Under the pieces are notes generated by a model. It saw only the letters and a list, made by a program, of their open reading frames with translations, did no database searches and had not been told where the DNA came from. The translations under genes were made by a program, and so were the position numbers. From a virus (taxonomy: Duplodnaviria; Heunggongvirae; Uroviricota; Caudoviricetes), in IMG/VR virus record IMGVR_UViG_2627853983_000005: 35,939 bases of DNA; one strand, given 5' to 3'. How positions within the stretch are numbered: the first letter of the stretch is position 1; the number at the start of each line of letters is the position of its first letter. Below are positions 18,824 to 21,009 of the stretch, in pieces.

Positions 18824-18906
18824 TCTGATAATTGTATGTGAACTAATAAAATACAGACCAACACATCATTCTGGCACCCTTGCTAACAGGGTGCCAATGT
18901 TTCAAA

Positions 18907-19749
18907 TCATGATGAAATTGCCGAAGTTTTTTTATCGTGCTGAAGTACCGCAAATGCCATTAAAACCTCAAGAGAATAGCGGCGATAATACTTAACAAAA
19001 CCATAATAAAATACTCGGGATGCAGCAATACAAAACAAGAGAAGAAAACAAAAAGGTAACAGTCTGATATTTATATCTATTAAAAAGGATAGAAGGAGCA
19101 GGAACATAAGCAACCAGACTGAAGCGAGAAAAACAAATGTAATGTTTCTACAAAAACCATACAAAGCAACATAGTTTTGCATTTTCACCTGATGATTTTT
19201 AGAATGTTCATACACATAATGATAAGCAAGGCGAAAAAGATCGCCCCTCAAGCCCTTACGTCGATATAGCGTAGATACAGAAAAAACATTTATATAACCA
19301 TCTCGTATTTGCGGCCAAAAGACTTTAATAAGTATAGAATGCAGTGTGGTTTTATGATGTTCTGCTTTATCAAAAGCTGATACAGGAAATAAAAAAACTC
19401 CACGAATAAAATTAACTATACTGAACTTAGTATTATGTCGTTTTATTTTCAGGGAGCTTCTTTTAGAAAACAGATAAATTGAAGGATACCCAAGTTTACT
19501 GTTCATGTATTTTTCAATTAAACAGGATGATAGAATAGATATGAAGTGACCTGAAATATATGATAGAACGATTAATACCACATATATAAATACACTTATT
19601 ATTTCTTTATATTTCAGGATATGGTTAAGAATACCTTCTATATAAACAGGGTTAATTTCAATAGAAAACAAAAAAAGGATAAACAGGAATAACCCACCTG
19701 GAATTAGATAGCCCAAAAAGTCATAAAATGAAAACGGATTCTGTGTCAC
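18907..19749 (-). CDS. Hypothetical integral membrane protein (2 N-terminal and 2 C-terminal TM helices), second gene of AT-rich cassette
   Basis: 280 aa; GTG start with CAGGGGGAAG RBS; very low GC; hydrophobic segments at both ends with a soluble middle. Confidence 0.6.
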   Translation of the reverse strand: MTQNPFSFYDFLGYLIPGGLFLFILFLFSIEINPVYIEGILNHILKYKEIISVFIYVVLIVLSYISGHFISILSSCLIEKYMNSKLGYPSIYLFSKRSSLKIKRHNTKFSIVNFIRGVFLFPVSAFDKAEHHKTTLHSILIKVFWPQIRDGYINVFSVSTLYRRKGLRGDLFRLAYHYVYEHSKNHQVKMQNYVALYGFCRNITFVFLASVWLLMFLLLLSFLIDINIRLLPFCFLLLFCIAASRVFYYGFVKYYRRYSLEVLMAFAVLQHDKKTSAISS

Positions 19750-19788
19750 ACTTCCCCCTGTGTTACTTGTAAATTAAAGGGTAAAACA

Positions 19789-20286
19789 TTATTTGTTTTT
19801 CCGTAAAGGATTAGCTTTCCATCTTCTTACTAACCATTCGAATTCTTGATATGTAGTATCCGAATTAATGCTTTCTCTGATTGCTTTAATTAATGGCTCG
19901 GCAATATCATATGTCTCTACAACTGTTGTGTAAGATGTTCTTTTTATCATTTTTTCATCATAAATACCTTCACGAATACTTACAGCAACTCGCTCGTAAA
20001 AATTTAAAATATATTGAAATTTTCGACGCTCGGCCATTTCTTCATCTGTTATTATGCAACCATCACAAGGAAAAACATAAGAACGAAATGATTTGCCTGA
20101 ACGATGCACTTGTTTCAGGGTATGCAATGACTCTATATATTGCATATCTTGCCGACTCTCAAAAAGAAAGTTGGCCGTTTGAGTTTTTTTTGCGGTACGC
20201 ACATTGTAGATAATGGTTCCAATGGCAACCAAAACGCCAAGCAGAACAATAGCATTGCTGATGATTTGTAGTGTTATTGGGTTCAT
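19789..20286 (-). CDS. Hypothetical single-pass membrane protein, first gene of AT-rich cassette
   Basis: 165 aa; N-terminal TM helix MNPITLQIISNAIVLLGVLVAIGTIIY then soluble domain; weak RBS. Confidence 0.6.
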   Translation of the reverse strand: MNPITLQIISNAIVLLGVLVAIGTIIYNVRTAKKTQTANFLFESRQDMQYIESLHTLKQVHRSGKSFRSYVFPCDGCIITDEEMAERRKFQYILNFYERVAVSIREGIYDEKMIKRTSYTTVVETYDIAEPLIKAIRESINSDTTYQEFEWLVRRWKANPLRKNK

Positions 20287-20299
20287 CCTATTTCATCCA

Positions 20300-20326
20300 T
20301 AAAAAAGGCGGGGAGCAAATCCCCGC
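20300..20326 (-). terminator. Rho-independent terminator/attenuator just upstream of AT-rich cassette
   Basis: On minus strand: stem GGCGGGGA/TCCCCGCC, 5-nt loop, then T6 run; ends 14 nt before cassette start codon. Confidence 0.55.
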
Positions 20327-21009
20327 CTCATTAGAGGTCAACGTAGCTTAGAAACCATCAAATTCATCATACATTTTTTTCATATCAACCCCCTCATAGA
20401 AATCATAACCACGTTTTGTGGTTTTTGTGACGTATAAACTACATCAAAGGCAAGCCACGGTCAAATATATAGGCATGCTTACCTGCACAAAAGTGCACAA
20501 ATTTGCACAATTTTTTTGAACGACTTTTTACCCTTCCGGCCCGCATGGCGGCTGGATCCGTCAAGGATCCGTGCGTGCACAAAAAAACGCGCTTTTTCTG
20601 CGCGCAGGTGACGGGGGAACAGCCCGCGTTTCAGGGGGTAAATAGCATTCCCTGAACGATGTCGCAGAGACACAACAGAATGGCCATATTTCTCACGCTG
20701 AGCATGAAAAAGGCGTGAGGGCTTTTGATTTGATGGGGTGAAAGGTAAGGCCGTCAAAATCGCACTGAGGCAGCGAGAACATGCAGTCAACGCGGTGGAA
20801 TTGCGTAAGAGTCTGACCGTCGATGGTGGCGATAAACTGGAAGGCGTCGTGAAATTATCTGATTGATACAGGAGCTGGAGAGCCGGGGCATAAATTTTTT
20901 ATGCCCCGGCGAAGCAGCAGACAAGCGAAGCGCGTCAGCGATACGGCACCTTGCCGACCATACTTCATAAGTGCAAAATACGAGCAAAGAAATCAATGGA
21001 GGCTGTCTT

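Follow-up and report, generated by a model that had tools for sequence, protein, structure and literature searches.

The two-gene membrane-protein cassette in the cos-proximal hotspot of this prophage may well consist of two separately mobile single-gene accessory modules that are stacked in the hotspot, and not of an obligate two-protein machine. The first module would run from a promoter through a mini-ORF, served by an SD of its own, an anti-SD and a strong intrinsic terminator to gene A, which encodes a DUF4760 protein. The second would be gene B, which encodes a putative Csx27-family protein with four TM segments; it would have been captured behind A in this one lineage and would elsewhere occur by itself, as an accessory gene in lambdoid prophages. 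The same reading includes the regulatory function that we propose for the leader of A and a role of both proteins in protecting the lysogen. The comparative data presented here show that A and B are independent of each other.

The cassette and its locus

The cassette is carried by a P2-family (P88-like) E. coli prophage, and the window, by which we mean the whole stretch of 35,939 nucleotides that was analyzed, has a GC content of 52.5%. An earlier note on this DNA had described two AT-rich ORFs on the minus strand, 39 nt apart and encoding 165 and 280 aa. The ORF coordinates agree (Table 1), and the GC content is 0.349 in A and 0.317 in B versus 0.525 for the whole window, with a drop to 0.30–0.33 at the cassette in a 500-nt GC profile. 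That A and B are real genes rather than chance ORFs is shown by several findings: the Pfam DUF4760 profile matches A with 119 bits, B is supported by 358 homologues and 1,083 clusters at 50% identity, and dN/dS between two B alleles is 0.28. The 39-nt spacer between the genes contains no terminator, and hence B is presumably cotranscribed with A. The same 39 nt are retained in a second variant of the pair (L089).

Table 1. Features of the cassette, its leader and its flanks
Feature	Position	Strand	Remarks
Hairpin GGCACCCT-GTTAGCA-AGGGTGCC	18873..18895		Between convergent stbB and B; kept in L089
Gene B	18907..19749	-	280 aa, GTG start; 4-TM membrane protein
A-B spacer	19750..19788	-	39 nt; carries the SD of B, GGGGGAAG, at 19751-19758
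Gene A	19789..20286	-	165 aa, ATG start; DUF4760 protein
Probable SD of A, TGGATGA	20293..20299	-	Directly 3' of the T-run; UGGAGA in distant homologues
Intrinsic terminator GAGGCGGGGA-TTTGC-TCCCCGCCTT plus T-run	20301..20329	-	Hairpin of -19.0 kcal/mol
Anti-SD, GACCTCT	20333..20339	-	Complementary to the SD of the mini-ORF; duplex of -8.6 kcal/mol
5-bp hairpin around the mini-ORF stop codon	20344..20357	-	RNAalifold prediction
Mini-ORF, 11 codons, MKKMYDEFDGF then TAA	20348..20383	-	Upstream of every intact A homologue examined
SD of the mini-ORF, GAGGGGG	20389..20395	-	80.8% of alignment cells show pairing with the anti-SD downstream
Promoter-like TTGACC (20464-20459)-17 nt-TAGTTT (20441-20436)	20402..20464	-	Consensus match only
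Alternative promoter candidate (scan), GTCACA-18-TATGAT	20431-20402	-	Consensus match only
cos core candidate GGGCTGTTCCCCCGTCACC	20608..20626		From alignment with other P2-like loci; followed by TGTGCA repeats

The gene order is Rep-ParM-StbB-B-A-(cos)-phrog_5091-portal. The cassette thus has the replication gene with ParM/StbB on one side and the portal gene on the other, at the P2 accessory site to which the earlier note had assigned it. This site, between gpA and gpQ, is the cos-proximal hotspot defined by Rousset et al. in 2022 (Cell Host Microbe 30:740; PMC9122126), the location of old and tin, at which defense systems have been validated. As expected for hotspot cargo, the position lies beside cos and its content varies between related phages, since two loci (L063 and L034) have the phage backbone of the cassette with other hotspot content. 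The intact cassette is present in 289 of 5,426 complete E. coli genomes (about 5%), and its carriers include the pandemic ST131 lineage.

The earlier note had considered the system undescribed, which does not hold: Table S5B of Rousset et al. lists exactly A plus B as system #3, "DUF4760," which ranks third in frequency among the arrangements (1,102 of 18,150 loci; PMC9122126). System #3 and the cassette are identical in protein sequences, locus (gpA-gpQ, beside cos) and TM counts, given there as "1 TM in protein 1, 4 TM in protein 2." It is a catalogue entry without a function in which the two genes are treated as one system, whereas our comparative data split them. The constructs cloned in that study (Table S2) do not include the cassette, which is also absent from the Vassallo 2022 supplements and was not found in the portion of DefensePredictor Table S10 available to us; we found no functional test of it in the literature, including the supplements of the Rousset 2022 and Vassallo 2022 studies.

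A and B occur independently

The two genes had been proposed to form a two-component module. Among 76 loci examined by tblastn, the A-B pair is confined to those in which A shows at least 99% identity, and the diverged homologues of either gene are always solitary. A occurs without B at about 40 loci with 66–90% identity, among them P2-like phages with A at this very site, one Klebsiella phage and the chromosomes of Rahnella, Enterobacter and Atlantibacter. B occurs without A at 11 loci with 44–48% identity and is solitary in lambdoid prophages. In L063/L064, the portal, ParM and Rep genes are 98–99% identical to those of this backbone, yet A is alone. Finally, L089 combines an unchanged A allele (dS of 0.039) with a different B allele (dS of 0.276 and the dN/dS value given above); hence, the B allele was exchanged behind the same A. 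Because the synonymous divergence differs 7-fold, the adjacent genes do not share a history.

These data make it rather unlikely that the cassette is a genuine two-component membrane system, in which A would act, for example, as the sensor or regulator and B as the channel or effector that depolarizes the cell or excludes phage DNA. Such a system would fit the close spacing of A and B, which share a strand and have no intervening terminator, the prediction that both are inner membrane proteins with cytoplasmic domains, their curation as one system by Rousset et al. (PMC9122126) and the number of E. coli genomes with the intact cassette. The arrangement and the spacer have also been kept where B is represented by an allele with 13% divergence that shows purifying selection. 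However, no co-occurrence of the two families outside this single A allele was seen across more than 50 loci in several phage types, the same phage backbone is found with A alone, and the 7-fold gap in synonymous divergence separates neighboring genes. The co-occurrence across diverged homologues of A and B that would mark a toxin-antitoxin or abortive-infection pair was likewise not seen. The presence of two B alleles with an unchanged spacer leaves room for a functional link between A and B that is specific to this lineage. The independence of A and B also bears on how the cassette is best cloned, with separate constructs for A under its native leader, for B and for the pair.

Gene A is preceded by a conserved leader

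Comparison of the upstream sequences shows that the leader of A is conserved. The mini-ORF, the terminator hairpin and the T-run are present in 35 of the 36 distinct A upstream regions. The one exception (L035/L044) lacks the mini-ORF and was at first sight a recombinant, but it is explained by an IS421 insertion inside the terminator hairpin. Within the mini-ORF, third codon positions vary freely, and the only amino acid replacements are F>Y and G>W. The conserved part of the peptide is the last 6 to 7 residues before the stop codon, and its length ranges from 8 to 21 residues. The TTGAC element of the promoter-like sequence is invariant among the aligned P2-like loci.

The predicted RNA structure is conserved as well. 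In the hairpin around the stop codon, 3 of the 5 pairs have compensatory changes and 90.4% of the alignment cells are paired; analogues of this hairpin precede distant A homologues, and the terminator is conserved with compensatory changes in all contexts. Taken together, the four leader helices are paired in 88.4% of cells versus 40–64% in slid controls, and 8 pairs are changed on both sides versus 3.4 in shuffles, with none of 500 shuffles matching. The layout is kept at A identities of 26–51%, in phages of Pseudomonas, Acinetobacter and Alteromonas and in Klebsiella and Providencia prophages. The mini-ORF motif covaries with the distant DUF4760 proteins, with the forms REEYEGI, NEGWDF and DGWDDI.

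The leader has the arrangement of an attenuator, that is, a leader ORF with an SD for its translation followed by an intrinsic terminator, conserved in homologues. The terminator ends 15 nt before the ATG of A, and so A, and in this prophage also B, would be made only by read-through. We infer that translation of the mini-ORF gates this read-through, by ribosome-dependent attenuation or by termination arrest. The A product would then be low in the lysogen and would be raised when translation at the leader is perturbed. A thermodynamic search found no credible antiterminator: the terminator forms in every constrained fold, and its sole competitor is a CCUC/GAGG hairpin of −4.8 kcal/mol.

Leader peptides that act as attenuators or arrest sensors include trpL, tnaC and toiL, the last of which is upstream of topAI. 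They share with the A leader a short SD-bearing ORF directly upstream of an intrinsic terminator before the regulated gene, conservation that centers on the final residues of the peptide, and an element that sequesters an SD. Unlike these examples, the A leader has no run of regulatory codons and no identifiable antiterminator. Its motif, [DE]-E-[FY]-[DE]-G-[FIV]-stop, matches none of the described arrest peptides, we found no paper on it, and the leader has no significant match in Rfam. A further difference from known attenuators is that the same type of mini-ORF also occurs in other phage contexts.

DEFDGF mini-ORFs in other phage contexts

Mini-ORFs with their own starts that end in DEFDGF-stop are found in at least 8 other phage contexts, including positions before other genes and at the ends of operons. 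The ending is enriched, with at least 120 matches versus 19 and 13 in controls, and in nearly every context the next element after the mini-ORF is a terminator hairpin. A 174-aa protein encoded after another class of DEFDGF mini-ORF has no PHROG match. The leader of A also directs attention to a wider and undescribed family of phage mini-ORFs with the DEFDGF ending.

The presence of such mini-ORFs before other genes and at operon ends suggests that the peptide could act in trans. The mini-ORF would then encode an acidic, aromatic micropeptide (xDEFDGF-COOH) that is a functional partner of DUF4760 and not a cis-acting leader. As part of this possible but unlikely reading, the peptide would be a ligand, an antitoxin-like inhibitor or an activator acting on the basic cytoplasmic domain of A, and the terminator would set a high ratio of peptide to protein. 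Besides the number of contexts and the enrichment, such a partnership is consistent with the covariation of the motif with distant DUF4760 proteins, the basic charge and invariant Arg and Lys residues of the cytoplasmic domain of A (see below) and the empty search for an antiterminator. On the other hand, conservation confined to the peptide end at variable length is typical of cis-acting arrest or attenuation leaders, as are the conserved stop codon hairpin and anti-SD, and the position of a terminator hairpin directly 3' of the mini-ORF in almost all contexts also argues for a function in cis.

The A protein and its homologues

A matches Pfam DUF4760 (PF15956) with 119.3 bits versus a cutoff of 25, over residues 12–156 of the protein and positions 2–141 of the 141-position profile, and all 41 aligned A relatives match the same family. 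Hydropathy supports the earlier view of a single-pass protein, with one TM segment at residues 8–26. The predicted topology is a short periplasmic N terminus, this TM segment and a basic, all-helical cytoplasmic domain with a pI of 9.05, in which Arg and Lys residues are invariant. In PADLOC-DB 2.0, A matched only PDC-S35, with an E value of 0.014. Neither A nor B matches Old or Tin, in agreement with the earlier note, and a tblastn search of 50,697 phage records returned unannotated relatives only and no homology to annotated exclusion proteins, including P22 SieA. The "1TM" protein of the AC1 P2-like TIR system, which would have tied A to TIR signaling had it been a DUF4760 relative, was rejected at an hhalign probability of 0.5%.

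Homologues of A occupy accessory positions beside integrase, tail-fiber or antirepressor genes. In Klebsiella and Providencia prophages they lie among arc, bro-N and ORF6N antirepressor genes, near tail genes. On chromosomes, DUF4760 is a stable, conserved gene downstream of astE in several Rahnella genomes, a context that is atypical for defense, and in Enterobacter and Atlantibacter it has housekeeping genes on either side.

The cytoplasmic domain of A has a predicted fold that resembles the ligand-binding EP domain of EDS1, PAD4 and SAG101 (PF18117), to the extent that the model would count as the same fold. In plants, the EP domain of these proteins is the receptor of the TIR-made signals pRib-AMP/ADP and ADPr-ATP, and to our knowledge it has so far been considered unique to seed plants. 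The plant literature describes EP domains as being without significant structural homologues outside their family. In the EDS1 family the domain is fused to an N-terminal lipase-like domain and contributes to the ligand cavity of a heterodimer; A, with its 165 aa, has a TM anchor in place of the lipase-like domain and no known heterodimer partner. PF18117 had no match among 41 members of the A family at E values up to 10, a search of PDB sequences with the A-family profile yielded no EDS1, PAD4 or SAG101, and there is no TIR gene near the DUF4760 loci examined. For these reasons, homology between A and the EP domain is unproven.

We regard it as a long shot that the EP domain has a relative in bacteria and phages in the form of DUF4760. 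This would be a membrane-tethered cytoplasmic receptor with a basic pocket for an acidic ligand, either a nucleotide-derived immune signal or the C terminus of xDEFDGF-type peptides, and its synthesis would be gated by a previously undescribed, translation-sensing mini-ORF/terminator device that phages also use elsewhere. If true, DUF4760 would be a new class of single-gene immune sensor-effector, and the EP domain would gain a prokaryotic counterpart. Should the EP-like fold reflect common ancestry or ligand chemistry, EDS1-type perception would join the immune modules shared by bacteria and eukaryotes.

B is probably a remote member of the Csx27 family

The earlier note had placed two TM helices at each end of B, and hydropathy indeed gives segments at about residues 12–30, 44–68, 206–224 and 230–252, which are helices also in the AF2 model. 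The central region (residues 78–200) is basic and predicted to be cytoplasmic. Csx27 is the four-TM accessory protein of type VI-B1 CRISPR-Cas13b systems. Its profile PDLC01605 is matched by 33 of 33 close and 53 of 68 diverse members of the B family, with modest E values of 1e−5 to 2e−10 (best, 2.2e−10) over positions 4–179 of 206. None of 10 local shuffles matched the Csx27 model, but one shuffle matched an unrelated model at 8e−5, and we therefore consider the support for a remote Csx27-family protein to be moderate.

B shares with Csx27 the four-TM layout and a near full-length profile match. It differs in its size, 280 aa versus the 206-position profile, in a cytoplasmic insert of roughly 120 residues, and in its genomic context: there is no CRISPR array or cas gene, and hence no association with cas13b, in the window or at any B locus examined. 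In PADLOC-DB 2.0, B matched only the CRISPR-associated Csx27 and tm_4 models, and no other system matched A or B. In E. coli, Csx27 represses Cas13b and does not execute interference (PMC11662929); it has also been proposed to be a channel for single-stranded DNA.

Possible role of the cassette

Prophages encode superinfection-exclusion membrane proteins such as P22 SieA, and T4 Imm and Sp and HK97 gp15 belong to the same group. Like these and P2 Old and Tin, A and B are small inner membrane or accessory proteins from prophage accessory positions, and the cassette has the same orientation relative to cos as old-tin. The slot of DUF4760 in Klebsiella and Providencia prophages is the one that sieA occupies in P22. 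By contrast, no homology to the exclusion proteins was detectable in the 50,697 phage records, and no exclusion phenotype is known. We infer that the most likely role of A and B is an inner membrane function, in exclusion or abortive infection, that shields the lysogen from other phages.

The analysis makes such a protective role plausible, and the cassette keeps the status of candidate anti-phage cargo that it had been given. Neither protein matches a complete PADLOC system. Longer E. coli proteins annotated as DUF4760 are predicted defense genes in the accessible portion of DefensePredictor Table S10. Language models scored only 15–32% of the unknown P2 hotspot proteins as antiviral, which speaks against such a role, and when 8 unknown loci of the P4 hotspot were picked at random, 6 proved defensive (PMC13586616).

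The cassette could instead serve lysogenic conversion or a membrane stress response that aids the host or the maintenance of the prophage. Such a function would suit the chromosomal DUF4760 genes downstream of astE or amid housekeeping genes, the absence of a PADLOC defense match for A and the repressive activity of Csx27 (PMC11662929). Moreover, the P2 hotspot also carries nondefense cargo, namely, ParM/StbB and cytolethal distending toxin (PMC9122126). We nevertheless find a nondefense role fairly improbable. In at least 5 types of temperate phages, the copies carried by phages are found where exclusion or accessory genes classically lie, the randomly chosen P4 loci were mostly defensive, and the tight gating by the terminator suggests that the product is costly to express. 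Protection of the lysogen remains our preferred role for the third most common cargo of the E. coli P2 defense hotspot, and the mini-ORF/terminator leader offers a concrete handle on the timing of DUF4760 production.

Flanking elements and cos

The hairpin between the convergent stbB and B genes is probably a 3'-end or terminator element, a function that we assign with caution because the hairpin has no T-run. On the other side of the cassette, a hairpin at 20305–20329 resembles P2 cos and was considered as the cos site of this phage. It was rejected since it accompanies DUF4760 in chromosomal and non-P2 phage contexts as well, since the P2 cos pattern (AF063097) has no match within 3 mismatches and since a better candidate, conserved only in P2-like backbones, is located farther upstream of A (Table 1). 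In view of the missing match to the P2 pattern, this candidate, which was compared with the reverse complement of P2 cos, GTGCTTTCCCCGCCTCGCC, is only the probable cos core of this phage.

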